From a virus, in the IMG/VR virus record IMGVR_UViG_3300008117_000088, positions 1 to 64,000 of that record: a DNA stretch of 64,000 bases; one strand, 5' to 3'. The notes beneath the pieces are model-generated. The model was not told where the DNA came from. It ran no database searches and was given only the letters and a program-made list of their open reading frames with translations. A program made the translations under genes and the position numbers. Shown here in pieces: positions 1,901-26,005 of the stretch; position 1 is the stretch's first letter, and each line of letters starts with the position of its first letter.

Positions 1901-1999
1901 TGTGATTTTGGCCACATTTAACCCTGGGGGGGTCAGCTTTGTGAGATGCGCCACATTATTACAAACCTACTTCCGCTAACTCAGCGTGTCTGCCATAGT
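1901..1999 (+). promoter_or_regulatory. early promoter module 1 with two CRP-like boxes
   Basis: TGTGA-N6-CCACA at 1901-1916 and 1940-1955; AAACCTAC; TTCCGC (1971)-17 bp-CATAGT (1994). Confidence 0.7.
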
Positions 2000-2041
2000 T
2001 CAACCATCAACACCGACCGAGTGTTGGTAAAGGGGCAACAA

Positions 2042-2326
2042 ATGGCAATCACAGCAGAAAACGCAAAGCGCATGATGTTAATCACCTCAAGCGCAAACCT
2101 CAGCGACGAGGACTTCCCGTTCTTTCGCAATCACATCACATCATTCAGCGAGTGGCTGGTATCCGAGGCAATCAACGACCTAGTGCGACTAGGTGTAGAT
2201 AAAGACCTTGCTTCCTCAATGCTCAACACCATCTCCCACATCTCAAGCATGGCGGGCGCAACCAATCTCTTTGATTACGGCGTGAGTGCCACAATCTTTG
2301 AGGAAAACGGACTTCGTGATGCGTAG
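2042..2326 (+). CDS. early hypothetical protein
   Basis: SD AAGGGG before ATG 2042. Confidence 0.7.
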   Translation: MAITAENAKRMMLITSSANLSDEDFPFFRNHITSFSEWLVSEAINDLVRLGVDKDLASSMLNTISHISSMAGATNLFDYGVSATIFEENGLRDA

Positions 2327-2480
2327 TCCTACTTACTATCGAATTCGAACACTTGTTCGGGTCTTATTCTGGACATCATTAGTCATAGGTATCTATTACC
2401 TAGCCACTCACATCAACTGGGTTGGCGATGGATACTGCTGGGGAACAATCACCGAGTGCTTCTTCGAGGAGGGGAAATGA
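2319..2480 (+). CDS. small membrane protein
   Basis: Hydrophobic segment LVRVLFWTSLVIGIYYLA; overlaps upstream stop. Confidence 0.65.
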   Translation: MRSPTYYRIRTLVRVLFWTSLVIGIYYLATHINWVGDGYCWGTITECFFEEGK

Positions 2481-2587
2481 CAGACGGCGAGATGATTGAC
2501 CAAATCATGGAATGGATCAACACGGACGGCGAACAGCTATCTGATGAAGATGTCATGAACAACATTAGGGAAATGCTCAAACAATAG
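2477..2587 (+). CDS. 36-aa acidic protein MTDGEMIDQIMEWINTDGEQLSDEDVMNNIREMLKQ
   Basis: ATGA overlap; SD GGAGGGG. Confidence 0.65.
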   Translation: MTDGEMIDQIMEWINTDGEQLSDEDVMNNIREMLKQ

Positions 2588-2602
2588 AGTTGCCCCACAA
2601 CA

Positions 2603-2634
2603 GCGGAGCGCCTGCCAATCGGTGGGCGCTTCGT
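2603..2634 (+). terminator. hairpin ending cassette 1
   Basis: GCGGAGCGCCTGCC-AATC-GGTGGGCGCTTCGT. Confidence 0.6.
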
Positions 2635-2648
2635 CTTGCTCGGCGAAA

Positions 2649-2789
2649 TGTTTGTGTTGGTCAGCCCACCCACCCTGACTCAACCCTAAAGGGAATAGGG
2701 GGGAGAGAAGCTCGAACAGATGTTCGGCCAGGAATGTGATGTAGATAACAACAAAGCCTATTCCGCTAACTGTGAGAAAGTGAGAAGGT
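2649..2789 (+). promoter_or_regulatory. early module 2
   Basis: TGTTTGTGTTGG 2649; CCCACCCACCC 2665; TGTGA-N6-TAACA 2735; TTCCGC 2761-17-GAAGGT 2784. Confidence 0.75.
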
Positions 2790-2837
2790 TCTCCTATCGG
2801 TGAAACAGAAGTAGCCGATAAGAAAGAAGGGGCAAAG

Positions 2838-3302
2838 ATGACCAAAGTCATCACTTACGGCTCAGCAGTAGAAGCGATAGACGCTCTCATGCTGGAGCAT
2901 GTAAATAACGCACCACTATCAGCAGACCTCGCTGAAGTTGTGGCGTTCGCAGTAAATAACGACCTACAAGTTCGGGATTATATTCTCGGATTACTACCTG
3001 ATGTTCTAACGGCACAAGGAGCGATTAGTTTCGTATCCGACCTGTTGCCACTCGTAGCGGAAGCCGACCGAGTTCCGTTCTACTCCGTATTATCCGCCTT
3101 CTACTCTGAAGCAGGGGATAACGACCTCGCCCACGCTTCACTATTCACAGCGCAGAGTCTAAATCCTGATTACTCTCTCGCTAAGTTGCTCTCTCGGGTT
3201 CTTGCCTCGGGTATGCCAATGGATTTCGCAAGCATGCGTGCGGAACTTCATCCGAAGGTTGTCGAAACCCTTACGGAGAATAGGGAACTGGTCATTTCCT
3301 AG
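2838..3302 (+). CDS. helical hypothetical protein (possibly DUF4192-like)
   Basis: SD GAAGGGG; VRD and YSLAKLL..L..G.P pattern. Confidence 0.65.
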   Translation: MTKVITYGSAVEAIDALMLEHVNNAPLSADLAEVVAFAVNNDLQVRDYILGLLPDVLTAQGAISFVSDLLPLVAEADRVPFYSVLSAFYSEAGDNDLAHASLFTAQSLNPDYSLAKLLSRVLASGMPMDFASMRAELHPKVVETLTENRELVIS

Positions 3303-3310
3303 AACTCACG

Positions 3311-3342
3311 CCGACCCCCACTCGCAAGGGTGGGGGGTTCGG
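3311..3342 (+). terminator. GC-rich hairpin with GCAA loop
   Basis: CCGACCCCCACTC-GCAA-GGGTGGGGGGTTCGG. Confidence 0.6.
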
Positions 3343-3371
3343 TGGATCGCGCCGGCCGCAGCTCGCGCAAA

Positions 3372-3494
3372 TGTTTGTGTTGAGACCCGCCCACCCTAGT
3401 CTCTGACTTACTTCGTAAGGGAGTTGTTGAGAGAGTTCGTGTGGCGCACATCACATCAAACCTACTTACGCTAACTAACGAGATAAGCAAAACT
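3372..3494 (+). promoter_or_regulatory. early module 3
   Basis: TGTTTGTGTTG 3372; CCCGCCCACCC 3386; TGTGG-N6-TCACA 3440; TTACGC 3466-17-AAAACT 3489. Confidence 0.75.
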
Positions 3495-3532
3495 AAGAGT
3501 GTTGGTGAAGGTCATCAACGGAAGGGGCAGTA

Positions 3533-3910
3533 ATGAAAGTAAAAGTGCCTGTAAATCTGGTAATCGCTGGTCTGGAACGCAGAGTAGCAGAAAACCGAGA
3601 GGTATCAGCACGCAACCAAATCGTTCGTGATAAATACGAGCAAGACAAAAAATCATGGGCAGAAGCGGTTGGCAAACTACCACTAGAAATAGATGATGTT
3701 AGTTATTCCACATGGCGAAACTCAGTATCTATTTCTTACAAAGTTCCAAACGGAACACGCATACCTGATGAACCACGACTTGGCGATTTAGAAAGCGAGT
3801 TGGGTAGCCATGAGGTTGATGAAATCGCTAATGCTGTTCGTATCTTAGGCATGAGCGAAGATGAGTATGTATCAGCAAGCACCATGAAGGAAATCGGAAG
3901 GTATCTCTAA
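3533..3910 (+). CDS. early hypothetical protein
   Basis: SD GAAGGGG; ORF track. Confidence 0.75.
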   Translation: MKVKVPVNLVIAGLERRVAENREVSARNQIVRDKYEQDKKSWAEAVGKLPLEIDDVSYSTWRNSVSISYKVPNGTRIPDEPRLGDLESELGSHEVDEIANAVRILGMSEDEYVSASTMKEIGRYL

Positions 3911-4395
3911 TGGGGTTGGACATGTATCTAGGCGCTCGCTCTACAAATAGCGAGTATCAAGAGTTGGGTTATTGGCGCAAGGCTAACGCTGTTCATGGTT
4001 GGTTCGTTCGTGAGTGCGCTAATGGATTAGATGAGTGCCAAGAGATTTTTGTATCTCGTGAGCAACTTCTAAAACTCCGTTCGGATTGTAATAATGCTCT
4101 CGCAAACCGAGAGAACGCAGTTCCGAATAATGAGGACAATGTAGTTATCAAGCAACCTGTTGGTAGCGGTCAAGACCTTGCTCAGTTCATCATGGAGAAC
4201 ATGAAAGCCGAGCAACAAAAGATTGGCACTACTCTGGTGAGTGATGACCCACTTCAGCCAACGGCTGGTTTCTTCTTCGGCTCAACCGAGAAAGATGAGT
4301 GGTATTACAACGACCTGATGGAAACCATTGACATCATAGATAAGGCGCTCGCCTTAGGTGATGATTGGCAAGTTATCTACCAAGCAAGTTGGTAG
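3910..4395 (+). CDS. conserved phage protein (MGLDMYL...YWRKANAVHGWF...YQASW family)
   Basis: Recognisable conserved phage motif; TAATG coupling. Confidence 0.8.
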   Translation: MGLDMYLGARSTNSEYQELGYWRKANAVHGWFVRECANGLDECQEIFVSREQLLKLRSDCNNALANRENAVPNNEDNVVIKQPVGSGQDLAQFIMENMKAEQQKIGTTLVSDDPLQPTAGFFFGSTEKDEWYYNDLMETIDIIDKALALGDDWQVIYQASW

Positions 4396-4404
4396 GTTGC
4401 CCCA

Positions 4405-4439
4405 AGCGAGTTGCCCCCGAAAGGGGGCGCTCGTTTTTT
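4405..4439 (+). terminator. intrinsic terminator
   Basis: GCCCCC-GAAA-GGGGGC stem plus T-run. Confidence 0.8.
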
Positions 4440-4464
4440 AGGGAACGCCAAACCCGAAGCCACT

Positions 4465-4582
4465 TGTTTGTGTTGGCTCCCACCCACCCTGAGCCTGATC
4501 CCTAAAGGGATAGGGAAAGAGAGCTCGTGTGATGTGGATCACTACAAAGCCTATTGTGCTAACTAGTGCTAGGCATTAGATT
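4465..4582 (+). promoter_or_regulatory. early module 4
   Basis: TGTTTGTGTTGG 4465; CCCACCCACCC 4479; TGTGA-N6-TCACT 4528; TTGTGC 4554-17-TAGATT 4577. Confidence 0.75.
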
Positions 4583-4619
4583 GGGTCTAGTTAGGAGATA
4601 CCTAACGGAAGGGGCAGAC

Positions 4620-4721
4620 ATGATGCTAATGGCGACATGTGTAGAGTGCGAGAGGGTGTTCAACCTTCTTGATGAGAATGATGCGAATGAGGTGGCATAT
4701 GGACACGATTGTGAGTCCTGA
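4620..4721 (+). CDS. 33-aa Zn-binding micro-protein (CVEC...GHDC)
   Basis: SD GAAGGGG; MMLMATCVECERVFNLLDENDANEVAYGHDCES. Confidence 0.7.
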   Translation: MMLMATCVECERVFNLLDENDANEVAYGHDCES

Positions 4722-4929
4722 GTCTCAAAAGTTTTACTCTAAGTATTATGGCGATTTAGTGGGCGCCACGATTCTTAGTTATGACGGGATGGTAGAGGAT
4801 GAGTTTGGAATGTATCCATTCCCTACATTTACTGTCCGGTTCAAGGATGGGCAGAAAGGTCAGATTCAGATCTATGCTGATGAGGAGGGTAATGGTGGCG
4901 GGTTCATCTCCGGATTAGCCTTGCCATAG
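4699..4929 (+). CDS. hypothetical protein (DEEGNGGG motif)
   Basis: ORF track; start either 4699 or GTG 4711. Confidence 0.65.
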   Translation: MDTIVSPESQKFYSKYYGDLVGATILSYDGMVEDEFGMYPFPTFTVRFKDGQKGQIQIYADEEGNGGGFISGLALP

Positions 4930-4938
4930 TAGATTTCG

Positions 4939-5037
4939 AGGTAGGTGCGTCAAAGCGGTTTATTTCCTTTCTTGCTCCCGCCAAGCGCATTCATGATCCG
5001 CCACACTTCTCGGGGAGATGTAGCTGCGTGCCTACCT
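4939..5037 (+). ncRNA. candidate structured 3'-UTR/small RNA
   Basis: AGGTAGGTGCG (4939) can pair with CGTGCCTACCT (5027), enclosing further stems and a pyrimidine loop. Confidence 0.35.
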
Positions 5038-5070
5038 ATTCCACAGCTGAGGCCGCCGGCCGCGGGGAAA

Positions 5071-5184
5071 GTTTGTGTTGGCCCACCCGCCCCGTTAAGG
5101 GAGTTGTTGTTATTCAGCTGTGATTCAAATCACAAGAGAAACTTTACAAACCTACTACCACGAAAGAGATATACATGAGAAGGT
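5071..5184 (+). promoter_or_regulatory. early module 5
   Basis: GTTTGTGTTGG 5071; CCCACCCGCCCC 5082; perfect TGTGA-N6-TCACA 5119; TACCAC 5156-17-GAAGGT. Confidence 0.7.
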
Positions 5185-5223
5185 TCACCTACCTAGTCAG
5201 GGCGACTAGAGAAAGAAGGGGTT

Positions 5224-5832
5224 ATGGGTTATTACATTGACCTAGTAGATGCAGAGTGGGAGATAACTGAATCTCCTGAATCTCTTGCAACTATTAGAGA
5301 GATGCCAACTAAATACCATGCTATTAAGCGTGGTGGCTCATCCAATGGCGAGAAGTGGTTCTCCTGGATGAATGATACTGATATCGAAACCGCGGAGACT
5401 GTAGAGAGTGTCTTCAATCAACTCGGATTCGAGACTGAAAAAGTAGACGGCGGGTTCAAACTTGCTTACTACAATAGCAAAACTGGTCAAGAAGATTTAT
5501 TTTTGGCGGTTATGGCTCCCTTTACCAAGGATGGTTCATACATTGAATGGCGAGGTGAGGACGGCGCGTTATGGAAGTTTGAAATCCACAACGGTCGCAT
5601 GTTTCGCTCCGAGTCTGAGATTATCTGGACCAACTCCCAACCGTATTCTTACTGGCACTATGATTTAGAGCCAGCAACAATGCAAGGACGTCAGATTAAT
5701 ATTGACCCACTTGCTCCCGCTGATGAGTTAGCGCAAGCGCTCAAAACTGCTAAAGAATGGGATGATGCGGACCAGGCATACTATGCCAAACTCCGTGCTG
5801 AACGTGAAGAGGCAGAGAAAGCCAACGCGTGA
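5224..5832 (+). CDS. early hypothetical protein (GSYIEWRGEDG motif)
   Basis: SD GAAGGGG; ORF track. Confidence 0.75.
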   Translation: MGYYIDLVDAEWEITESPESLATIREMPTKYHAIKRGGSSNGEKWFSWMNDTDIETAETVESVFNQLGFETEKVDGGFKLAYYNSKTGQEDLFLAVMAPFTKDGSYIEWRGEDGALWKFEIHNGRMFRSESEIIWTNSQPYSYWHYDLEPATMQGRQINIDPLAPADELAQALKTAKEWDDADQAYYAKLRAEREEAEKANA

Positions 5833-5963
5833 GAACTTTGCACGTATGTTGCTCGCACATACAGCATGAGAACTATTGCCCATGCTGTATGAGCGAGTGC
5901 GAAGCAGAGAAGGATTCTGGAATGCAAGGTCCTTACTGCAAGTGCAACAGATGTAGCAGCTAA
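5829..5963 (+). CDS. possible 44-aa Cys-rich micro-protein
   Basis: GTGA overlap; 9 Cys; overlaps strong hairpin 5851-5898. Confidence 0.4.
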   Translation: MRTLHVCCSHIQHENYCPCCMSECEAEKDSGMQGPYCKCNRCSS

Positions 5964-6001
5964 GGCTGCTGATGATCCAAGCTATGCCCCGCTAGGATCC
6001 A

Positions 6002-6041
6002 AACGAGCTCGGCCGCTGCCCCGGCCGGGCATCGTTTTTTT
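6002..6041 (+). terminator. intrinsic terminator
   Basis: CTCGGCCG-loop-CGGCCGGG stem plus T7. Confidence 0.75.
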
Positions 6042-6073
6042 AGGGCGCCAAATCTTATTTCCCGAATGCCTAA

Positions 6074-6210
6074 TGTTTGTGTTGGCCCGCCCTCCCCATT
6101 TATATACTAGGGAATATTCATATATTCATTCAGCTGCTGAAGAGAGCTGCAGTCATGTGATGTAAATCACTACAGACCTACTTACGCTAAAAGAGAGATG
6201 GACCTATGGT
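6074..6210 (+). promoter_or_regulatory. early module 6
   Basis: TGTTTGTGTTGG 6074; CCCGCCCTCCCC 6086; TGTGA-N6-TCACT 6156; TTACGC 6182-17-TATGGT 6205. Confidence 0.75.
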
Positions 6211-6253
6211 TCAGTCACTGGTTACAGATAGTAACTAAGTGAAGGGATAGAGA

Positions 6254-6508
6254 ATGCGTACTCTGAGAGAGATAGCGCTGGAGATAGATTGGGAATGCCG
6301 GGGTAAGTCTTGGTATCCATATGCAGAAGCATATGTCACTCCCATGATGTCACTCGATACCATGCAAGACCGGTACTTCGAGGATTCAGCAGAATCAATA
6401 GTCTCCTATGCACTGGCTAATCTCCAGTCATGGAGAGGAGACAATGCCCGTCGAATTAAGGCGGAACTCAATGCAATGCTCAAGTCAGCAAGGAAGGTGA
6501 ATGCATGA
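6254..6508 (+). CDS. conserved phage early protein (WRGDNARRIKAEL motif)
   Basis: SD GAAGGG; recognisable small phage family. Confidence 0.75.
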   Translation: MRTLREIALEIDWECRGKSWYPYAEAYVTPMMSLDTMQDRYFEDSAESIVSYALANLQSWRGDNARRIKAELNAMLKSARKVNA

Positions 6509-6957
6509 CAGCTGAGACATACAATCCGCATCAGCTAGTAACGTTGCGGGATATCAATGACGGGGCCGAAAGCTTCGTCATCCATAAAGCTACAGACCTC
6601 GAGTGGAAGCTCGAGACAGCTAAGCTCAATCGCCGGGAGCTGGATACAGCTCAAGCTAAGATTGGAGCTATCACTTCGGAGATGACCAGTGAAAGCTGGT
6701 ATCACTCGAATACAGATAAAGATGAAGTACTAAGTAAGCTCGAAGAGATTCTGGGCGTCAACCCTACAGCTACGATCAGCATCACAGCTACGATCGAGGT
6801 GTTCATTACAGCTGAGGTGCCGCTGAAAGAGCTCGACAGCTTCGATTCAGATTCACTGATCCACGACTCGATCACGATAGATGCGAGCGCTTGGGGATCA
6901 GAAGTCAATGTAGATGACTGGAATCTACAAAGCTCAGATTGGGAGGAACAGAGCTAA
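6505..6957 (+). CDS. acidic hypothetical protein (AGCT-saturated gene)
   Basis: ATGA overlap; ORF track. Confidence 0.7.
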   Translation: MTAETYNPHQLVTLRDINDGAESFVIHKATDLEWKLETAKLNRRELDTAQAKIGAITSEMTSESWYHSNTDKDEVLSKLEEILGVNPTATISITATIEVFITAEVPLKELDSFDSDSLIHDSITIDASAWGSEVNVDDWNLQSSDWEEQS

Positions 6958-7008
6958 CTCAGAGACAACGCACCCCGGGCCAGCTTCGCGGCGGCTCGGG
7001 GCTCGCGT

Positions 7009-7122
7009 TGTTTGTGTCGGCCCACCCACCCCATAGGGAATATATATAAGCTGCGGGCTCGGCCTGGTGTGAGATAGATCACTGCAAACCTACTTACACG
7101 TAGAGGGAGAGTCATATACCTT
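7009..7122 (+). promoter_or_regulatory. early module 7
   Basis: TGTTTGTGTCGG 7009; CCCACCCACCCC 7021; TGTGA-N6-TCACT 7068; TTACAC 7094-17-TACCTT 7117. Confidence 0.75.
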
Positions 7123-7144
7123 AAGCAATGAAGAGAGGGGTCTC

Positions 7145-7846
7145 ATGAAACTTAAACGGTCCAAAGATCGTAAAGTGGCTAATAGTCTTACTCCTAATGG
7201 GAAGACTGCAAGAATTGCTAATTCTTTCGGTTTACCCGCGGGGAGAGAGTACAGCTGCCCGGCGCAGACTTCAATTTGCGCTCGCATATGTTATGCCGGC
7301 AAGCTGGAGAAAATCTATCCAACAGTGCGTACTAACCTTATGCACAATTGGGAGATGCTTAAAGATGCAGATCATGACACGATGGAGAGTCTACTCGATG
7401 AGATGATTGTGGAATTCAAGGCGGAATGTGACAAGTGGTCCGCGCCTAAAGAATTTCGCATTCACTGGGACGGGGACTTCTTCTCCTCAGATTATGCATT
7501 CGCATGGAAGCATGTGATCATGAACCATCCGGACGTTCGCTTCTGGGTCTACACACGTGTAGAGTCTGCAGCTTATATGCTCCGGAACCTAGAGAATCTC
7601 ACTTTATACTTCTCCACTGATAAAGAGAATCTCGAAAGCGCTCAACGCCTACAGCGTGAAGGCGTGTTACTGGCAGGATTACACGATACTTTCGATCAAG
7701 CCAAGGATATGCTCCTGGCGCTAGGCGAGAGATCTGCAAAGTGTCCCGAGCAACGCAAGCAAATTCCCCTGGAAGGCGCCTGCATTGCATGCAAGATTTG
7801 CGTCAAGGGCACTAACAATATAACGTTCAGCATTACTAAGAGATAG
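7145..7846 (+). CDS. GP88-family protein (radical-SAM-like Cys motif)
   Basis: SFGLPAG...SCP...C..ICYA, RIHWDGDFF and WVYTR motifs. Confidence 0.75.
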   Translation: MKLKRSKDRKVANSLTPNGKTARIANSFGLPAGREYSCPAQTSICARICYAGKLEKIYPTVRTNLMHNWEMLKDADHDTMESLLDEMIVEFKAECDKWSAPKEFRIHWDGDFFSSDYAFAWKHVIMNHPDVRFWVYTRVESAAYMLRNLENLTLYFSTDKENLESAQRLQREGVLLAGLHDTFDQAKDMLLALGERSAKCPEQRKQIPLEGACIACKICVKGTNNITFSITKR

Positions 7847-7854
7847 GGATCAAT

Positions 7855-8124
7855 ATGGGATACACAACAGCGTTAGACTTAGCCGGCCAAATTCACCTGG
7901 ATCAAGGCCTGGCCCATCACTTAACCGGCAATCATTATCCGCCGGTACCGTTAACGATGGTCGATCCATGCAAAGCTGCAATCGATGCGTACCTGGATGA
8001 AGACTACGACCGGGAGATAGAGCTACCGGATCCAATTACGTATAAGGGCCGCACTACAGCGCCGGCACGGGCGATAGTAGATCAGCATCACTTGCACCCA
8101 TTCGTAGAATCACTGCAAGAATAA
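7855..8124 (+). CDS. conserved actinophage protein (HLTGNHYPPVP...HHL)
   Basis: ORF track; motif typical of small phage proteins. Confidence 0.7.
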   Translation: MGYTTALDLAGQIHLDQGLAHHLTGNHYPPVPLTMVDPCKAAIDAYLDEDYDREIELPDPITYKGRTTAPARAIVDQHHLHPFVESLQE

Positions 8125-8170
8125 TAGAGTTGCTCCCCTAGGTACTACCCTTCCACCTAGGGTCGAGCAC

Positions 8171-8214
8171 GGAGAAGCCGCGTTGTTTCAGGTCAGCGCG
8201 GCTTTCTTCTTTTT
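8171..8214 (+). terminator. intrinsic terminator
   Basis: GAAGCCGCGTTG...CAGCGCGGCTTTC plus T-run. Confidence 0.75.
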
Positions 8215-8245
8215 AAAAGGGAAATGCCTACTCCCAAAAGCCAAA

Positions 8246-8331
8246 TGTTTGTGTTGACCCTCCCACCCCTCATCCCTTCGGGATAGGGTGCGGCCGAAAA
8301 GTCAAGTAGCTTTGCTGTGATATTGCTCACA
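8246..8331 (+). promoter_or_regulatory. module 8, left half
   Basis: TGTTTGTGTTG 8246; CCCTCCCACCCC 8258; perfect TGTGA-N6-TCACA 8316. Confidence 0.7.
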
Positions 8332-8334
8332 CAG

Positions 8335-8485
8335 TGAGAGAGAGGCTCGGCCAGGCCGCCTATTCCAGTTAGTTTCACGTGAAACAAGCGATCTTCGAAG
8401 AAGAGAGCATGAATAAGAGAGATAGCTATTGGCAGAGAGAGCAGAGAGAGAAGAGAGAAGCCAAAAAGAGAGATAAGAGAGATAG
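8335..8485. repeat. GA-rich low-complexity tract
   Basis: Repeated GAGAGA/AAGAGAG; partial complement CTCTCTCTCTGC near 8666. Confidence 0.6.
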
Positions 8486-8711
8486 CCGACATTAAATGTC
8501 GACAAATCGACTAGTCGATTAGGCTACTGCATTGACCGGTCATGGCCTCCCCGGCTGTGCAGCCAGCTTTACAGCCTCGATCGGCTGAAACTATCCGATA
8601 TCACTGCAAGCTAATTGCTACCCAATGGCTGGCAGGGCAAAGAGATGTCAGTCCCTCTCTATATCCTCTCTCTCTGCATGTATAAGCCAATCTATTTGGG
8701 GCCGATTTTTC

Positions 8712-8766
8712 TGTGAGTCAAGTCACAGCAAACCTACTACCCCTAAGACGGCATATACGTAATGAT
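8712..8766 (+). promoter_or_regulatory. module 8, right half (promoter)
   Basis: Perfect TGTGA-N6-TCACA 8712; GCAAACCTAC; TACCCC 8738-17-AATGAT. Confidence 0.7.
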
Positions 8767-8803
8767 TAGAAAGTAAGGGCAAGAACTCAACGAAAGGTAT
8801 CAA

Positions 8804-9076
8804 ATGAGTCTCAAATGGGAACTCGATTATCACCAAGGTAAGTACAACGAAGCCAAGGCTAAGGAAAACGAAGCGTTCCACGCAATCCTCAAGATCATCA
8901 CTGATTTAGGCGGAAAGCGTGAGCACGTAGACAAGGCGATCGGTCTATGGGTAGATGGCACTTTGGCATCCAACGATATGGGATGGCACAGAGCATTTAG
9001 GTCTGAGGCTGAGGACAAGATTCAAGAACTTCGCAAGTTAGTCGATATGGATGAAGACGCGGAGTTGTTGAAATGA
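8804..9076 (+). CDS. hypothetical protein
   Basis: SD GAAAGG; ORF track. Confidence 0.7.
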   Translation: MSLKWELDYHQGKYNEAKAKENEAFHAILKIITDLGGKREHVDKAIGLWVDGTLASNDMGWHRAFRSEAEDKIQELRKLVDMDEDAELLK

Positions 9077-9180
9077 CGGGCAGACAAGTAGTCTGTCCTA
9101 CCTGCGGTAAAGAATTGGAGGTGAGGTCGGGCATCTTTGCCCACCAAACCCTCGCCCGCCATATGAAGGAGCATGAATGA
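9073..9180 (+). CDS. 35-aa C2H2-type zinc-finger micro-protein
   Basis: MTGRQVVCPTCGKELEVRSGIFAHQTLARHMKEHE; ATGA overlaps at both ends. Confidence 0.7.
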   Translation: MTGRQVVCPTCGKELEVRSGIFAHQTLARHMKEHE

Positions 9181-9431
9181 GCACTGATGATATATCTGTA
9201 GGCGATGCAATTATTGTAAAGGCGCTGTTGAACGGCACCTTTACTGATCCCGATGGAAACAAAGCAACATTAACTGTTAAGGGTTTTGTTGGTGCAAATA
9301 TCATTGCAGCTCGTGTGGCGTTGCTCACGCAACCACGCCCACTATCTGAAAGTGATATCACTGAGATTGTTAAGTTTCTCAAGGATGCAGAGACTGCATT
9401 GAACATGCTTGAGGACAAGGAACAAGAATGA
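9177..9431 (+). CDS. hypothetical protein
   Basis: SD AAGGAG; ATGA overlaps. Confidence 0.7.
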   Translation: MSTDDISVGDAIIVKALLNGTFTDPDGNKATLTVKGFVGANIIAARVALLTQPRPLSESDITEIVKFLKDAETALNMLEDKEQE

Positions 9432-10063
9432 AAGCGGTGTCGTTATTCGCCGGGGTCGGAGGTTTCGATCTTGCATTAGAACGTGCGGGTGTACCTGTTG
9501 TTGCATCTGTAGAGATTGATAAGCATGCACGTGGTGTACTGCAACAACAATTTCCTAACACAACATTATTGGAGGATGTAAAAAATGTCACAGGCGATCA
9601 ACTTAGAGAACTCGGATTCGAAGGTTCTGACGGAATTATTGTCGGAGGCTTCCCGTGTCAAGACCTCAGCGTTGCTGGTAAGCGAGCAGGTCTTGCTGGA
9701 GGTAGAAGCGGACTCTTCTGGGAAATCTGTCGCATCCTCGACGAAACGAAAACGAAATGGTTCGTCCTCGAAAACGTCCCCGGTCTTTTGTCATCTAACG
9801 AAGGACGAGATATGGGAACCGTCATCCAAGCGTTGGTTGAGCGCGGGTATGGGGTCGCATACAGGATTCTTGACGCTCAATACTTTGGAGTCGCCCAAAG
9901 AAGACGTCGTATCTTCATTGTCGGATGTCTTGGAGACAACGGGCGAGCACCTGCAGAAGTACTTGCTCTCATCGAAGGCATGCGAGGGTATTCTGAGGCG
10001 ATCAACCAAAAAGGGAAAACAACTTCCTCCCTTGCTTCACTCAGCTTTGGAGAACATGACTAA
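9428..10063 (+). CDS. DNA (cytosine-5) methyltransferase, N-terminal catalytic part (motifs I-VIII)
   Basis: FAGVGG (I), GGFPCQD (IV), ENV (VI), QRRRRIF (VIII). Confidence 0.92.
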   Translation: MKAVSLFAGVGGFDLALERAGVPVVASVEIDKHARGVLQQQFPNTTLLEDVKNVTGDQLRELGFEGSDGIIVGGFPCQDLSVAGKRAGLAGGRSGLFWEICRILDETKTKWFVLENVPGLLSSNEGRDMGTVIQALVERGYGVAYRILDAQYFGVAQRRRRIFIVGCLGDNGRAPAEVLALIEGMRGYSEAINQKGKTTSSLASLSFGEHD

Positions 10064-10082
10064 TGTGGTTCATAAAGAGTAG
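9585..10082 (+). CDS. overprinted MTase beta-like subunit in alternative frame
   Basis: SSLSDVLE...KYLLSSKACEGILRRSTKKGKQLPPLLHSAL, recalled pattern of M.EcoHK31I-beta-like polypeptides; true start uncertain. Confidence 0.6.
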   Translation: MSQAINLENSDSKVLTELLSEASRVKTSALLVSEQVLLEVEADSSGKSVASSTKRKRNGSSSKTSPVFCHLTKDEIWEPSSKRWLSAGMGSHTGFLTLNTLESPKEDVVSSLSDVLETTGEHLQKYLLSSKACEGILRRSTKKGKQLPPLLHSALENMTNVVHKE

Positions 10083-10602
10083 GCGTGCAAAGGACGTGGA
10101 AGATTATGAAACTTGGGTTGATGCGGAGGTTACTCCTACATTGAACGCATTCGATAACAATGGCGATACACGATCAACGGTGCTTATCTTCTACACTGGT
10201 ACCTTTGGTGAAGTACGAGTACAGGGAGATGTGATTAATACGTTGCCGGCAAAGATGGGAACGGGTGGTAATAACACTCCTATGATGGCATTCCCTATCC
10301 AGGGAACAATCATCGGTCGCAGTGATACTGCTGGACCACAAGGCAAAGGATTTGGTGATTCTACTGATCCTATGTACACAATAGATACCGTTGGTGGTAA
10401 TGCGGTTGCAACTCCTGCAATGGTGCGACGTTTAACTCCGTTAGAATGTGAGCGCCTACAAGGGTTTCCCGATAACTGGACTGCATCACAGTCTGATTCA
10501 CAACGATATAAACAAATGGGCAATGCGGTAGCAGTACCGGTTGTTCAATGGATAATAGATAGGTTGGTTGACGTTGAAACAAGATTTAATGCAAATGCTT
10601 AA
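10063..10602 (+). CDS. cytosine MTase C-terminal part (TRD repeats plus motifs IX-X)
   Basis: RRLTPLECERLQGFP and YKQMGNAV; TAATG coupling. Confidence 0.88.
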   Translation: MWFIKSRRAKDVEDYETWVDAEVTPTLNAFDNNGDTRSTVLIFYTGTFGEVRVQGDVINTLPAKMGTGGNNTPMMAFPIQGTIIGRSDTAGPQGKGFGDSTDPMYTIDTVGGNAVATPAMVRRLTPLECERLQGFPDNWTASQSDSQRYKQMGNAVAVPVVQWIIDRLVDVETRFNANA

Positions 10603-10771
10603 GTCTCAAGTAAAAGACATGTATGGAAAGCACGGCTTAAAAGCTGTGGATGAGTATTTAGATCAAAACTACAAGTTAATACCTTGGGAGCAATGCTACG
10701 AGTGCGACAAGATTACGCCCCGTGATCCACGCACACTAAAGTGTTTCTTTGAGGAGGATCATGAGTTCTAA
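10595..10771 (+). CDS. small Cys-containing hypothetical protein
   Basis: ORF track, start trimmed. Confidence 0.55.
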   Translation: MLKSQVKDMYGKHGLKAVDEYLDQNYKLIPWEQCYECDKITPRDPRTLKCFFEEDHEF

Positions 10772-11174
10772 ATGGGACTATGCTTTTTACGATCGTAACT
10801 CACAGCCTTGCACTTTAAAGGAATGGAGCGAAGAATTCGGTAGTCCATATGCATTCAAGAAGGATGTGTTTGTAAAAGATTATCGAGTATTAACCAAGTG
10901 GACCGGAGTTGATATGCCGGAATACGATTGGTTGCAAAAGAATCAATTCAGTTCTAAGAACTGGAAACCAAACTCTAAGCCATCACCGTTTGTTTCATAC
11001 GTATGGAATGCTGACGGGGAAATCGTAGAGTCAAAGCGTTATCAAACTATTGAACGTGCATACAAAGGTCATGCTGAATTAGTTCAGCGCTTTGCTAAGG
11101 AAGACCTTGGTGTGTATCATGTGCCTGTAGTCCTACAAGATATGGAGGAAACAAATGGCGAAGAAAAAGATTAA
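10761..11174 (+). CDS. hypothetical protein
   Basis: SD GAGGAGG before ATG 10761. Confidence 0.7.
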   Translation: MSSKWDYAFYDRNSQPCTLKEWSEEFGSPYAFKKDVFVKDYRVLTKWTGVDMPEYDWLQKNQFSSKNWKPNSKPSPFVSYVWNADGEIVESKRYQTIERAYKGHAELVQRFAKEDLGVYHVPVVLQDMEETNGEEKD

Positions 11175-11463
11175 AGTCTTTAAAGTTTCGCTTACAAACA
11201 ACTTTGAAAAAGGTGGCGGTTGGCTGTGCCACGTTCGTTGTTATGATGAACGTGATCAGTACGAAGCATCTTTTACAGATGTAATTGGTCAGTCAGACTA
11301 TTCTGCTTGGAAAAACCCTTCAGCAGCTAAGCGTCACGCTAAAGCTATGGCTCAGAAATGGACCACCAAGAAAAGCGTAAAGATGATTGCTGGTACAACT
11401 ACCGATTCAAAGGGCAAGCCTGCAACATTTCATGGCGAGTTTACTTTTAAAGTCGACGCCTAA
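11155..11463 (+). CDS. hypothetical protein
   Basis: SD GGAGG; ORF track. Confidence 0.7.
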   Translation: MAKKKIKVFKVSLTNNFEKGGGWLCHVRCYDERDQYEASFTDVIGQSDYSAWKNPSAAKRHAKAMAQKWTTKKSVKMIAGTTTDSKGKPATFHGEFTFKVDA

Positions 11464-11520: not shown

Positions 11521-11781
11521 TTAGTACGACAATATTTCTGGCAGTACTTCTTTACCTATAATTCTGTGCTTTCTTCTGTACTCATCTCTTTGATCTGTCG
11601 TAGTGCCCGCCCATATTCCTTGAACTTTATTCTCTATTGCGTATTTAAAACATTCATCTTGAACTGGGCAGTTTTTACATATTCTCTTCACATGACCCAA
11701 CTGTTGATAATGCATTCCTTCATCAGGAAAGAACAATTCAGTGTCAAGTCCTAAACATGAAGGGGTGCCACTAAAGCGCAT
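11521..11781 (-). CDS. whiB: WhiB-family transcription factor
   Basis: C...ELFFP...CKNCPVQDEC...GIWAG motif. Confidence 0.9.
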   Translation of the reverse strand: MRFSGTPSCLGLDTELFFPDEGMHYQQLGHVKRICKNCPVQDECFKYAIENKVQGIWAGTTTDQRDEYRRKHRIIGKEVLPEILSY

Positions 11782-14178: not shown

Positions 14179-15645
14179 TTACTCTTCGATTGCGCCCTTA
14201 ATTATCTGAGTTGTCTGGTCCTCATTGAGTCCTTCATTAGGTAACTCTTTAAGAACTTGAGCCTTCTCCCCAAAAATTTGGGATAGAACTCCGGCAGATC
14301 CTTGGCGCTCTACAGTCATCCGAATGAACTCTCTTGAGTCATCCAATTCCTTAGTTGTTTTGATAAGTTTGAATAACCTATCGATCTCTTGCGATACATT
14401 GGGGTCAGCGTATCCGCCGTTCATTTCCTCTGCAAATCGCATAAAAGCTACCCTTTGACCCTGCATTTCAATGATTGCATTGATCAAACTCTTAAGTTGT
14501 TCTTTAGTCTTAACCTCTACTGGAAGCTTAAAGGCGCAGGTATTTTGAGGTTTAAATGCTGGACAATTTGATGCTACAAAGCATGTATCGCACTGTCGCA
14601 AACTACTATCTCTGGTTTGCATAACTGGTACATCTTTAAGTACATCGTTACCTGAATCATCCTTCTCAATAATGGTCTTAACACCAAAACCAAACACTGG
14701 AAGATTGGTCATTTCCTCTGGATTTCGCGGTTCAAGTTTCCGCATCTCAACCCCTGACCTATCCGATATTGCGGGTAGGTTTTCCGCAAAGTCTTCACCA
14801 GCTGGATCCTCGAAACTATCGTATATGTTCGGATCTTTGGTCATACTCAACCTCGTTTCTAGTTGGTCAAACGACCAAACCGCTAACTTGCATAGTTCTT
14901 CAGAATCATCCGCTACGATCTTTTCGAAGCTTAAATTCGCCTTTTCATAAATTGCTTTATGACGAGGCCTGGCCTGTTCTTTCATGCTTTTTGGATACCG
15001 GACCAATCTTGTACCGTCCCAAACAATGGTCTCACCTCTAGTCATAGGTGACAGCCAAGACATGGTGCTGGCGGTCTCTACGGGCACCTGACGCAGGTTA
15101 TCTGGTCGAATGGTCCCCATTGCATGGAGTCTGGTCTCGTGCTTGTTCTTAAGCCCTCTGGCGGTCCTAGAAAGCCATACAGACTCGTCTATGGCTTCGC
15201 CTGGTATGGATATATCCAAATACCGTTCTGCCAGTTCCTCAAGCCCAGACTGCCCGCTTTCGGTCCTCCAGACCGGCAAGAACTTGGCTGGTGGAACCTC
15301 GCCCCAGACGGTATCTCGTTGATCTCGTATAAAGTCAGGTCCAACTTGATGGTGCGCTATCTCTGTGAAGTAGGTAATTCGGTCTATGTTGTTCATTATG
15401 AACTCTTCATAGTCTGCCGCAAACTCTTCAAGGGCTACTCGTTCTAACTCTTGAGTCTTTGGTATGCCGGGGTGAACCAGAATTGCCATATCCTCAGGAA
15501 AATAGTTAGCTAACAGGTATGTTTTAGTTTTAGGCAATCCGCGTTTGCTGGCTCTCCAATAGCTAAACCCAACTGCCGTAGCTCCGGCTGATCCAAGCAG
15601 TAGCCGATTACTAGGGACCTCAGCCCCTAGGTAAAAAAGTCTCAT
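14179..15645 (-). CDS. TGT/DpdA-like TIM-barrel protein with C-terminal Cys4 and helical domain (apparently degenerate)
   Basis: RLHAMG...VPVETASTMSWL...RGET resembles the HxxG...SxDSSSW region of TGT-like folds; CDTC..NC...C. Confidence 0.45.
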   Translation of the reverse strand: MRLFYLGAEVPSNRLLLGSAGATAVGFSYWRASKRGLPKTKTYLLANYFPEDMAILVHPGIPKTQELERVALEEFAADYEEFIMNNIDRITYFTEIAHHQVGPDFIRDQRDTVWGEVPPAKFLPVWRTESGQSGLEELAERYLDISIPGEAIDESVWLSRTARGLKNKHETRLHAMGTIRPDNLRQVPVETASTMSWLSPMTRGETIVWDGTRLVRYPKSMKEQARPRHKAIYEKANLSFEKIVADDSEELCKLAVWSFDQLETRLSMTKDPNIYDSFEDPAGEDFAENLPAISDRSGVEMRKLEPRNPEEMTNLPVFGFGVKTIIEKDDSGNDVLKDVPVMQTRDSSLRQCDTCFVASNCPAFKPQNTCAFKLPVEVKTKEQLKSLINAIIEMQGQRVAFMRFAEEMNGGYADPNVSQEIDRLFKLIKTTKELDDSREFIRMTVERQGSAGVLSQIFGEKAQVLKELPNEGLNEDQTTQIIKGAIEE

Positions 15646-24839: not shown

Positions 24840-25697
24840 TTACTCCTCCGTGTAATTGCTACATTTGTTACAGCCGGCTACGCCGTTAATATTACATGTA
24901 GGGGGTACTCCCCCGTCAACTGCTGAAATGATTTGAGCAGCGTGATCAAATAGCTCAGCCACCCCAAAATCGCTTTTTGCAATTACAAACTCTTTTACCT
25001 CGTGCAAACCTTTGGCTTCATAAAGAATCAAGGCTTCTTTAGGGGCATTAGGTAGACCCATTAATTCCATAAGCTTCATGTAAATCTGAGCTTGTTGGAT
25101 ATGCTCGTGAAACGGGGCCTTAACAGCATCCCACATGCTTTTAAAGTCAGGATTGTTCATGCCAATCTCTGGTGCATACCAACGAATACTGCCTTCTCCA
25201 ATAGATTTAACTTCTAACAGAAGAGGGTCACCAAATTCGACAAGCCATCCATCTGCGTGACCGGAAATCCTTAACGGATCAAAACTTAAAGGAACTTCTT
25301 CGTAAACAACGTTGTACTTGCATTTACCTGGGTGGTCAGAAGGTAAACCAAAATATTCTTTTTTACATACGGTGCAAAACCATTTTCCTTTTAATTTGCC
25401 CATCTCATGAAACCAGTTTTGCCAAGTTTTGTGAATACTGTGACCTTGAGCAAATATCAATGCTCTGCGAAGTCCAACTGGTTCGTGCTTTGGCTTTTCA
25501 CCTTTTAACCAAAAGTATTGAGCTCTGTGACACCAAGAAGCGGATGCCATCTCAGACGGATGTATAACTAATGAAGATCTATTTGAAGGAGGTCTGCTAA
25601 GTAAGTATCTGTCTACGTGACCAATTACTCGACTGCTTTTATCCGTCGCCAAAAATGCTTTTAACGCACCTGATGGTCTTACTTTTTCTTTACCCAT
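24840..25697 (-). CDS. Cas4-like PD-(D/E)XK exonuclease
   Basis: HPSE..C.R, GHADG, LLEVKS, QAQIY, C-terminal Cys cluster. Confidence 0.85.
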   Translation of the reverse strand: MGKEKVRPSGALKAFLATDKSSRVIGHVDRYLLSRPPSNRSSLVIHPSEMASASWCHRAQYFWLKGEKPKHEPVGLRRALIFAQGHSIHKTWQNWFHEMGKLKGKWFCTVCKKEYFGLPSDHPGKCKYNVVYEEVPLSFDPLRISGHADGWLVEFGDPLLLEVKSIGEGSIRWYAPEIGMNNPDFKSMWDAVKAPFHEHIQQAQIYMKLMELMGLPNAPKEALILYEAKGLHEVKEFVIAKSDFGVAELFDHAAQIISAVDGGVPPTCNINGVAGCNKCSNYTEE

Positions 25698-26005
25698 TCT
25701 TCGAGTGTCTTCCCGTTCTTGGTCGCCTTACGCTTAAGAGCATTACGCTCTCTGTGGCTAAGACCGCCCCATATGCCGTGTTGTTCATCGTTTTGGTCCG
25801 AATACAGTAAGCACTCTATTCGCACAGGACATTCTGCCTTACCATCCTTGCCAAAGCAAACCGCCTTGGCTTTATCGGCAATAGGCTTATATTTAGTTTT
25901 ATCTCTGGGGGGAAACCAGTAATCAGTCTCGGGACTTGAGCACATGCCGCGACACTTGGCTTGGTATCGCCACTTTTCTACGCCTTCGTCTTCGTACAAG
26001 AGCAC
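25679..26005 (-). CDS. whiB: WhiB-family transcription factor
   Basis: AKC...WFP...AKAVC...CPVRIEC...GIWGGLS..ER. Confidence 0.9.
   Translation of the reverse strand: MLLYEDEGVEKWRYQAKCRGMCSSPETDYWFPPRDKTKYKPIADKAKAVCFGKDGKAECPVRIECLLYSDQNDEQHGIWGGLSHRERNALKRKATKNGKTLEEWVKKK

Follow-up and report, generated by a model that had tools for sequence, protein, structure and literature searches.

Gene-centred depletion of short palindromes in the early cassettes of an uncultured freshwater phage, consistent with avoidance of Type II restriction sites

Why should a few early genes of a phage be nearly free of short palindromes when the remainder of its genome is rich in them? The question is raised by the first kilobases of IMG/VR virus record IMGVR_UViG_3300008117_000088, a genome of 96,030 bp (G000) that was analysed whole and of which the window, the stretch of 64,000 nucleotides presented here, forms the first part. 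An earlier sequence-only reading had proposed from a manual scan that positions 3481-4395 contain no palindromic 4-mers other than CATG, CTAG and GCGC, and had ascribed this to the purging of restriction sites from the DNA that enters the cell first. The count is exact: CATG occurs nine times, CTAG twice and GCGC four times, while the other 13 palindromic 4-mers are absent. On balance we think it probable that short palindromes in a few immediate-early genes have been under negative selection from host Type II enzymes. The genes under selection would, with similar confidence, be 2838-3302 and the coupled pair 3533-3910/3910-4395, together with 1946-2326 and 5224-5832 to a weaker degree.

The cleared interval extends beyond the part first noticed:

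3365 to 4496, no strand: interval without the 13 palindromic 4-mers, 1132 bp, with flanking sites at 3364 and 4497

It spans one complete unit, comprising a repeat-module box, a promoter, two genes, a terminator and the next module box. The next-longest gap lacking the same 13 words in the 96,030-bp genome measures 385 bp, and the sole 6-mer palindrome within the interval is ACATGT at 3920. Positions 3501-4500 hold 17 palindromic 4-mers, against 61.5 expected from base composition or 55.9 from a Markov model, which is the minimum of the 64-kb window; the maximum (98) is found at 7001-8000. With a second-order Markov expectation, the observed/expected ratio (O/E) is 0.46 in 1946-5200, 0.86 for the whole genome and 1.33 in 6000-8500, so that the depletion is far from equally strong genome-wide. 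Palindromes of 6 bases are also scarce across 1946-5832, with 28 present, whereas control windows of the same length contain 47 on average and never fewer than 32.

To control for coding constraints, synonymous codons were shuffled within each of 135 open reading frame (ORF) calls, retaining both the protein and the codon usage. The depletion survives this treatment, as the following genes illustrate (palindromes observed against expected):

1946 to 2326, plus strand: first cassette gene, likely start 2042; 9 against 17.3, z -2.6, moderate depletion
2838 to 3302, plus strand: 154-residue acidic, all-helical, TPR-like protein; 8 against 25.7, z -4.3
3533 to 3910, plus strand: 125-residue protein, most depleted gene of the genome; 6 against 23.9, z -5.0
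3910 to 4395, plus strand: 161-residue acidic protein (isoelectric point 4.3), translationally coupled to 3533-3910; 9 against 28.1, z -4.9
5224 to 5832, plus strand: 202-residue very acidic protein, phrog_38862; 20 against 35.0, z -3.3, O/E 0.57; the purged zone ends here

Set against a genome mean z of -1.1 (standard deviation 1.3), the three most depleted of the 135 calls are 3533-3910, 3910-4395 and 2838-3302, all of which lie within four consecutive calls, an arrangement that by our own count would arise by chance about once in a thousand. The shuffle, Markov and composition tests agree that protein sequence, codon usage and base composition do not account for the depletion. The sequence-only reading had described 2042-2326 and 2838-3302 as similarly depleted, which holds for the second (z -4.3) and only in a moderate form for the first (called here as 1946-2326, z -2.6). 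It had rightly seen avoidance relax in 5224-5832, and its statement that avoidance is lost after about 6250 proves too cautious, since the genes from 6254 onwards are enriched in palindromes (z +1.3 to +2.7).

The purge is concentrated in coding DNA. The 13 avoided words occur at 8.9 per kb in the coding parts of the purged zone and at 22 per kb in its intergenic parts, compared to 40 per kb genome-wide, and the leftover sites are concentrated in GC-rich terminator hairpins. Some 19 sites of the avoided types persist in 1946-3364, mostly within such intergenic hairpins, of which one lies at the border of the clean interval:

3345 to 3364, no strand: GC-rich hairpin 3' of gene 2838-3302 with unpurged intergenic sites; GATC, CGCG, CCGG, GGCC and AGCT present

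What kind of word is being avoided? Within 3365-4496, 13 of the 16 palindromic 4-mers are missing, as opposed to one of the 120 non-palindromic reverse-complement pairs (Fisher p = 1.6e-14), and 6-mer palindromes fall to 0.9 per kb from 12.1 per kb genome-wide. Dyads with a spacer of 1-2 nt are approximately halved in number, and 8 of the 16 interrupted 5-mer types are absent. Dyads with a spacer of 3 nt or more stand at the genome level, such that depletion is confined to 0-2 nt spacing. This geometry bears on the idea that self-complementarity is avoided in highly expressed early mRNAs, or that DNA hairpins are, an effect of nucleic-acid structure or translation for which the strong, conserved ribosome-binding sites of the early genes and their own promoters might speak. 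Loops of 3 nt or more, which are able to fold, are not depleted, and three palindromes are fully tolerated; avoidance of foldable hairpins is thereby excluded, and we regard the structural explanation as a whole as barely credible. Orthodox Type II sites fit the observed spacing, and the geometry supports a depletion that acts like Type II restriction-site avoidance. Five metagenomic variants fall within 3365-4496 and none of them creates a palindrome, a number too small to count as evidence.

Is the pattern maintained? In related metagenomic phages (loci are designated L below), the depleted orthologues span 30-88% protein identity. Among the closest relatives, three metagenomic contigs of 75-81% nucleotide identity (L021-L023) keep the clean interval with only a few AATT, ATAT or CGCG, and their genes have O/E values of 0.26-0.66 (pooled 0.42). 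The boundaries of 3365-4496 are preserved in L021 and L023 too. Neighbouring differences confounded an estimate of the new palindromes to be expected per substitution separating the window from L021-L023, and no weight is placed on it here. Further away, a scan of IMG/VR for the intergenic module of the array returned 49 loci from a clade of ~96-kb phages, where the orthologues in L100 contain 1 palindrome against 16.3 expected and 2 against 18.6, with 3 against 20.7 in L095, 3 against 16.3 in L093 and 5 against 23.5 in L069; those in L100, L093, L095 and L075 form local dips on a normal background. Orthologues of 3533-3910 at 30-36% identity have O/E values of 0.11-0.18 (L100, L095 and L093), and those of 2838-3302 range from 0.06 to 0.84. 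When 7.9 kb of distant orthologues (30-53% protein identity) are pooled, 191 palindromes are observed against 426 expected, with the following spectrum (observed/expected):

GATC: 1/25, avoided
AGCT: 3/43, avoided
ACGT: 0/16, avoided
CCGG: 0/6, avoided
GGCC: 3/17, avoided
TGCA: 6/24, avoided
GCGC: 27/24, not avoided
CTAG: 27/31, not avoided

The persistence of depletion in such diverged orthologues, with a stable site spectrum, argues that it is maintained by selection and is neither chance nor a relic of transfer, and points to ongoing selection against Type II sites across the clade. A relic would mean that the cassettes arrived recently from a globally palindrome-avoiding genome and have not yet equilibrated. 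In its favour, the G+C content is 0.48 in the early array compared to approximately 0.43 in the remaining genome, strains seem to exchange cassettes at the repeated modules, and many unrelated phages with the 161-residue family are palindrome-poor overall. At 30% protein identity, however, synonymous sites are saturated, and a relic would have decayed in orthologues of 30-53% identity; neighbouring cassettes of equal G+C content are moreover enriched in palindromes. We consider this explanation largely refuted and very improbable. In unrelated phage lineages carrying the 161-residue family, the gene itself is modestly more depleted than its neighbours at 20 of 27 loci (Wilcoxon p = 0.005, for loci that are not fully independent).

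If host enzymes are indeed the selective agent, the purged cassettes would have to stay uncut on the entering DNA so as to be transcribed within the first minutes of infection. Protection of the site-rich remainder would then be taken over by an anti-restriction product, by later DNA entry or by repair. GCGC and CTAG might be tolerated either if the relevant hosts lack cognate enzymes or if the phage's own C5 methyltransferase covers both words. The purge would in this case follow gene cassettes rather than distance from the start of the array.

The last point separates this reading from a strictly positional one, in which a leading end enters first, as in the first-step transfer of T5 or the staged entry of T7-like phages, and remains free of sites until its products protect the remainder. 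The layout of the genome lends that idea some weight. Nearly all genes are oriented leftward, the exception being a rightward block of short cassettes at 1946-11463, and the purged zone begins at the boundary between the two and covers approximately the first 4 kb of the rightward array:

1862 to 1946, no strand: divergent junction between leftward genes (1862 to 111, continuing across the contig join) and the rightward cassette array

Palindromes are not depleted on the far side of this junction. By protein comparison, gene order runs collinear, in reverse, with that of Streptomyces phage LuckySocke (OR725497.1) and the BRock group, with identities of 72% for the major capsid protein, 57% for the portal and 53% for the terminase. 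The LuckySocke record has fixed ends with an exact 344-bp terminal repeat, a homologous terminase, and a 10-kb opposite-strand block of small genes just inside its right end, equivalent in position to the rightward block. On synteny with LuckySocke only, a physical genome end would be predicted near 1862-1946. The GP88 member of the array (see below) has homologues near the physical ends of other phages, and T5 and Murciavirus provide precedents for a positional purge.

Several observations nevertheless run against a purely positional purge. The first 114 bp of the record are repeated at its end (1-114 = 95917-96030, inside the minus-strand gene 95749-96027), and terminal overlaps in relatives measure 23, 123 and 123 bp and lie at unrelated positions of the map, with the early array at 13, 19, 36, 41 and 83 kb in five complete relatives. 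Since these ends fall at unrelated places and position 1 is bridged over 2.4 kb by a 14.5-kb metagenomic contig, the start of the record is arbitrary and the apparent direct terminal repeats are assembly features rather than virion ends. Assembled metagenomic contigs aligned to the genome formed no pile-ups of starts or ends. Even if the junction is taken as the end, the DNA leading from it to the protective genes is not site-free, with ~19 avoided-type sites left between 1946 and 3365. LuckySocke itself has no match to ArdC or DUF4192 and no homologues of the early genes, and its right end is not palindrome-poor. Staged injection is without support in this myovirus-like phage.

The most direct evidence comes from four relatives that carry an ArdC-like gene of 290-320 codons, encoding an ArdC N-domain and a zincin peptidase (PF08401 + PF18818; E ~1e-28 to 1e-34), between the junction and the depleted genes, directly upstream of the latter:

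L116, 6920 to 7789: ArdC-like gene
L093, 4458 to 5351: ArdC-like gene
L100, 3589 to 4539, minus strand: ArdC-like gene
L115, 12743 to 13621, minus strand: ArdC-like gene

This gene is not depleted in any of the four (O/E 0.80-1.26), and 1.5-3.5 kb of undepleted DNA including it separates the junction from the depleted genes. The genes immediately after it are strongly depleted in L093 and L100 (O/E 0.10-0.47) and weakly so in L116 and L115 (0.61-0.82). With an undepleted gene nearer to the junction and purged genes beyond it, the purge tracks gene families, not position. ArdC (PF08401 + PF18818) is absent from the analysed genome, where the equivalent place is occupied by the small gene 2042-2326 and the 512-bp spacer 2326-2838. 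The claim that first-entering DNA has been purged is therefore supported as to the signal of restriction-site avoidance and weakened as to its purely positional character, and we judge the strictly positional explanation unlikely, if still deserving of serious attention.

Selection by host Type II enzymes on particular genes has difficulties of its own. The intergenic hairpins retain GATC, CCGG, GGCC, AGCT and TCGA, which leaves the DNA between cassettes open to a 4-cutter, and the remaining genome is rich in sites (331 GATC, 214 CCGG and others), where cleavage should kill the phage in the absence of staged entry or repair. ArdC, the sole recognisable anti-restriction gene of the clade, is itself unpurged. 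A minority of relatives (L115/L056, L070 and L077) show little depletion, with O/E values of 0.7-1.1. The products of the purged genes match no known anti-restriction family or fold in Pfam, PHROG, NCBIfam or fold searches. The site-rich remainder may survive through staged entry from an end close by, through inhibition with subsequent repair, or through some other protection.

Downstream of the purged zone the pattern is reversed:

6254 to 8124, plus strand: four downstream early genes, palindrome-enriched; z +1.3 to +2.7, the most enriched of the 135 calls
7145 to 7846, plus strand: Pfam GP88 member, E = 4e-46
9428 to 10063 and 10063 to 10602, plus strand: split C5 cytosine DNA methyltransferase, PF00145 E = 1.6e-55; end of the early array

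Pooled, the four genes contain 153 palindromes against 117.5 expected (O/E ~1.3 after codon shuffling), and their orthologues are enriched too (457 against 360.9). Loci with such orthologues include L095 (6061-7868), L102, L061 and L068. Within the window the two groups are mirror images of one another, in that AGCT, CCGG, GATC, TGCA and TCGA are the words most avoided upstream and most enriched in 6254-8124, while GCGC and CTAG are neutral in both.

This symmetry, and the termination of the array in a split C5 methyltransferase, would be expected if the avoided words were targets of that enzyme, possibly a multispecific one, combined with methyl-dependent (Type IV) restriction, or of a DNA-binding regulator, and were selected against in the first genes and for in the downstream genes. 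Such an arrangement seems improbable to us. Palindromes of A and T only, which contain no cytosine, are also missing in the window; all but three of the 16 palindromes are affected, which is too broad for a single binding protein; and methyl-dependent cleavage of the remaining genome would kill the phage all the same. Only motifs IX-X of the methyltransferase align with M.HhaI, too little for its specificity to be deduced, and no other DNA methyltransferase was found in the genome, including those of the N6/N4 or Dam-type families. As for GP88, its homologues lie ~2 kb from the right end in L5-like mycobacteriophages, and ~130-kb Streptomyces (BE-type) phages have it twice in each record, at a distance of 4-5 kb from the end; GP88 is thus a recurrent end-proximal early gene of actinophages.

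What, then, do the purged genes encode? The 1946-2326 gene has no family match in Pfam or PHROG. The product of 2838-3302 matches DUF4192 (PF13830; E = 1.9e-8, 35 bits against a Pfam gathering cut-off of 27.8), with the match confined to profile positions 204-319 of 321, i.e. the C-terminal third. Its predicted structure is a TPR-like helical array with a mean pLDDT (predicted local distance difference test score) of 93.5, for which only weak, generic TPR/Fis1-like fold matches were returned, and tblastn found no BLAST-level relative in phage or plasmid records. In conjugative plasmids of Arthrobacter, DUF4192 serves as a marker ORF. The product of 3533-3910 matched nothing in Pfam, PHROG or NCBIfam.

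The coupled 161-residue protein (3910-4395) belongs to a family of at least 7957 homologues, mostly from phages and none of them named, with the invariant motifs YWRK..N..HGW and GFFFG. It has no Pfam match and no tblastn match in phage or plasmid records. Its structural model has a pLDDT of 73, and the best VIA Z score is 6.9, to the DapD N-domain. The fold search also returned YfbM (DUF1877; Z 5.4) and the DNA mimic DMP12 (Z 4.3), both below meaningful thresholds, and a language-model search again led to DMP12 (feature score 0.82) and YfbM/DUF1877 at levels below meaningful. Foldseek gave no match in the PDB and unnamed matches in BFVD, and a profile search against PDB sequences found none.

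The products of the purged genes would be the best candidates for a protective function. The cassettes are probably anti-defence genes, with the clean promoter-to-terminator unit 3365-4496 as their core; the context includes the ArdC-like neighbour in relatives, the DUF4192-like product and the early cassette architecture. A bolder proposal is that the purged genes constitute a self-contained, restriction-proof expression unit, most clearly at 3365-4496, which could be transcribed while the incoming genome is being cut elsewhere, and that their products (the 125-residue protein, the 161-residue protein and the TPR-like DUF4192 relative) are a new class of Type II restriction inhibitors that rescue the genome or co-infecting kin. 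This we put forward as speculation that is more likely wrong than right. If true, it would describe a strategy at the level of the gene and not of entry order, with the palindrome-rich downstream genes as a functionally linked counterpart.

The setting is that of a large tailed phage. The genome codes for a tail sheath, baseplate, portal, T4-type terminase, family A DNA polymerase and ribonucleotide reductase. Lake or freshwater metagenomes of 13 studies contained near-identical DNA, in ~19 runs altogether (the metagenome material being assembled contigs from 24 runs), and Megablast found no DNA-level match to the region in phage or plasmid records; on these grounds this is an abundant, uncultured, myovirus-like freshwater phage. 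Kinship to Streptomyces phages and two minus-strand WhiB-like genes (11521-11781 and 25679-26005) make a freshwater actinobacterial host likely. PHROGs labels a further gene, 14179-15645 (minus strand, 488 residues), as a queuine tRNA-ribosyltransferase (E = 5e-54). This label is not confirmed by Pfam or NCBIfam, the LuckySocke homologue is annotated as hypothetical, and DpdA-type DNA modification is not assumed.

In the rightward block, a repeated intergenic module with CRP-like boxes separates the units, each of which has its own promoter and its own terminator, and the 3' end of the block is formed by the split methyltransferase. Joints within metagenomic contigs link 3338 with 6074, 4318 with 5071, 5097 with 6075 and 2677 with 3355 (in 2459-6075 of the window), all at or near these modules. 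This suggests that recombination at the modules leads related strains to exchange whole cassettes or to lose them; joints of low likeness may instead stem from relatives. In the 'spacer' 4396-5223, a 20-nt copy (90% identical) of the ribosome-binding region of gene 3533-3910 was noted within 4604-4721, upstream of an ATG at 4620, the start of a 33-codon ORF that contains a CxxC motif and may be an unannotated mini-protein cassette.

How does this compare to systems already described? T5, a siphovirus, has a terminal repeat of 10 kb and has been demonstrated to transfer its DNA in two steps. Its first-step-transfer region has no EcoRI sites and a single gained site confers sensitivity (as cited in PMC12455610). 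In both phages a minority of the genome that contains early genes is free of restriction sites common elsewhere. The T5 case concerns the site of one enzyme as opposed to nearly all 4-bp palindromes here, where the purge is centred on particular genes, intergenic sites remain and it is terminase relatives that carry a (344-bp) repeat. In the T7-like Murciavirus, the early-injected region decides sensitivity to the Type I system Mme2I, and motifs elsewhere are harmless (Martinez-Cazorla et al., NAR 2025, PMC12455610). Restriction pressure again falls on a sub-genomic, early-expressed region, there with variable anti-defence genes. In that work the target was one bipartite Type I motif, the phages were podoviruses whose staged entry is known, and the proof was experimental, whereas we describe a broad, Type II-like palindrome purge in an uncultured myovirus-like phage from sequence statistics alone.

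The leading regions of conjugative plasmids carry ArdC and further anti-restriction genes. Plasmid leading regions are likewise depleted of restriction targets (PMC12455610). Here the likeness extends to gene content, in that an ArdC-like gene adjoins the purged genes in relatives and purged 2838-3302 resembles the Arthrobacter conjugative-plasmid marker. The leading DNA of a conjugative plasmid, however, enters single-stranded from a defined origin of transfer, as opposed to that of a tailed phage; the analysed genome has no ArdC, and the ArdC of its relatives is unpurged. Finally, Type II palindromes can be under-represented across a whole phage genome, which serves as a passive defence against restriction (Rusinov et al. 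2018, as cited in PMC8594841). In the present case whole-genome avoidance is mild; in 3-5 genes the effect is about three times as concentrated, and in their neighbours it is reversed. The general principle is thus already known from T5, T7-like phages and plasmid leading regions. New are the wide range of words purged, the link of the purge to genes instead of position, its conservation across an uncultured clade and the palindrome-rich neighbours.

Local site avoidance offers an inexpensive computational marker of genes whose expression a phage needs before its remaining defences take effect. In an abundant clade of uncultured freshwater phages, apparently actinophages, it draws attention to three unannotated families as candidates for anti-restriction genes, of which one has thousands of members in phages, and it provides targets for restriction-alleviation assays. 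Surveys of site avoidance are better done per gene. The selective unit can be the gene cassette instead of the genome end, which refines the leading-region picture drawn from T5 and T7.

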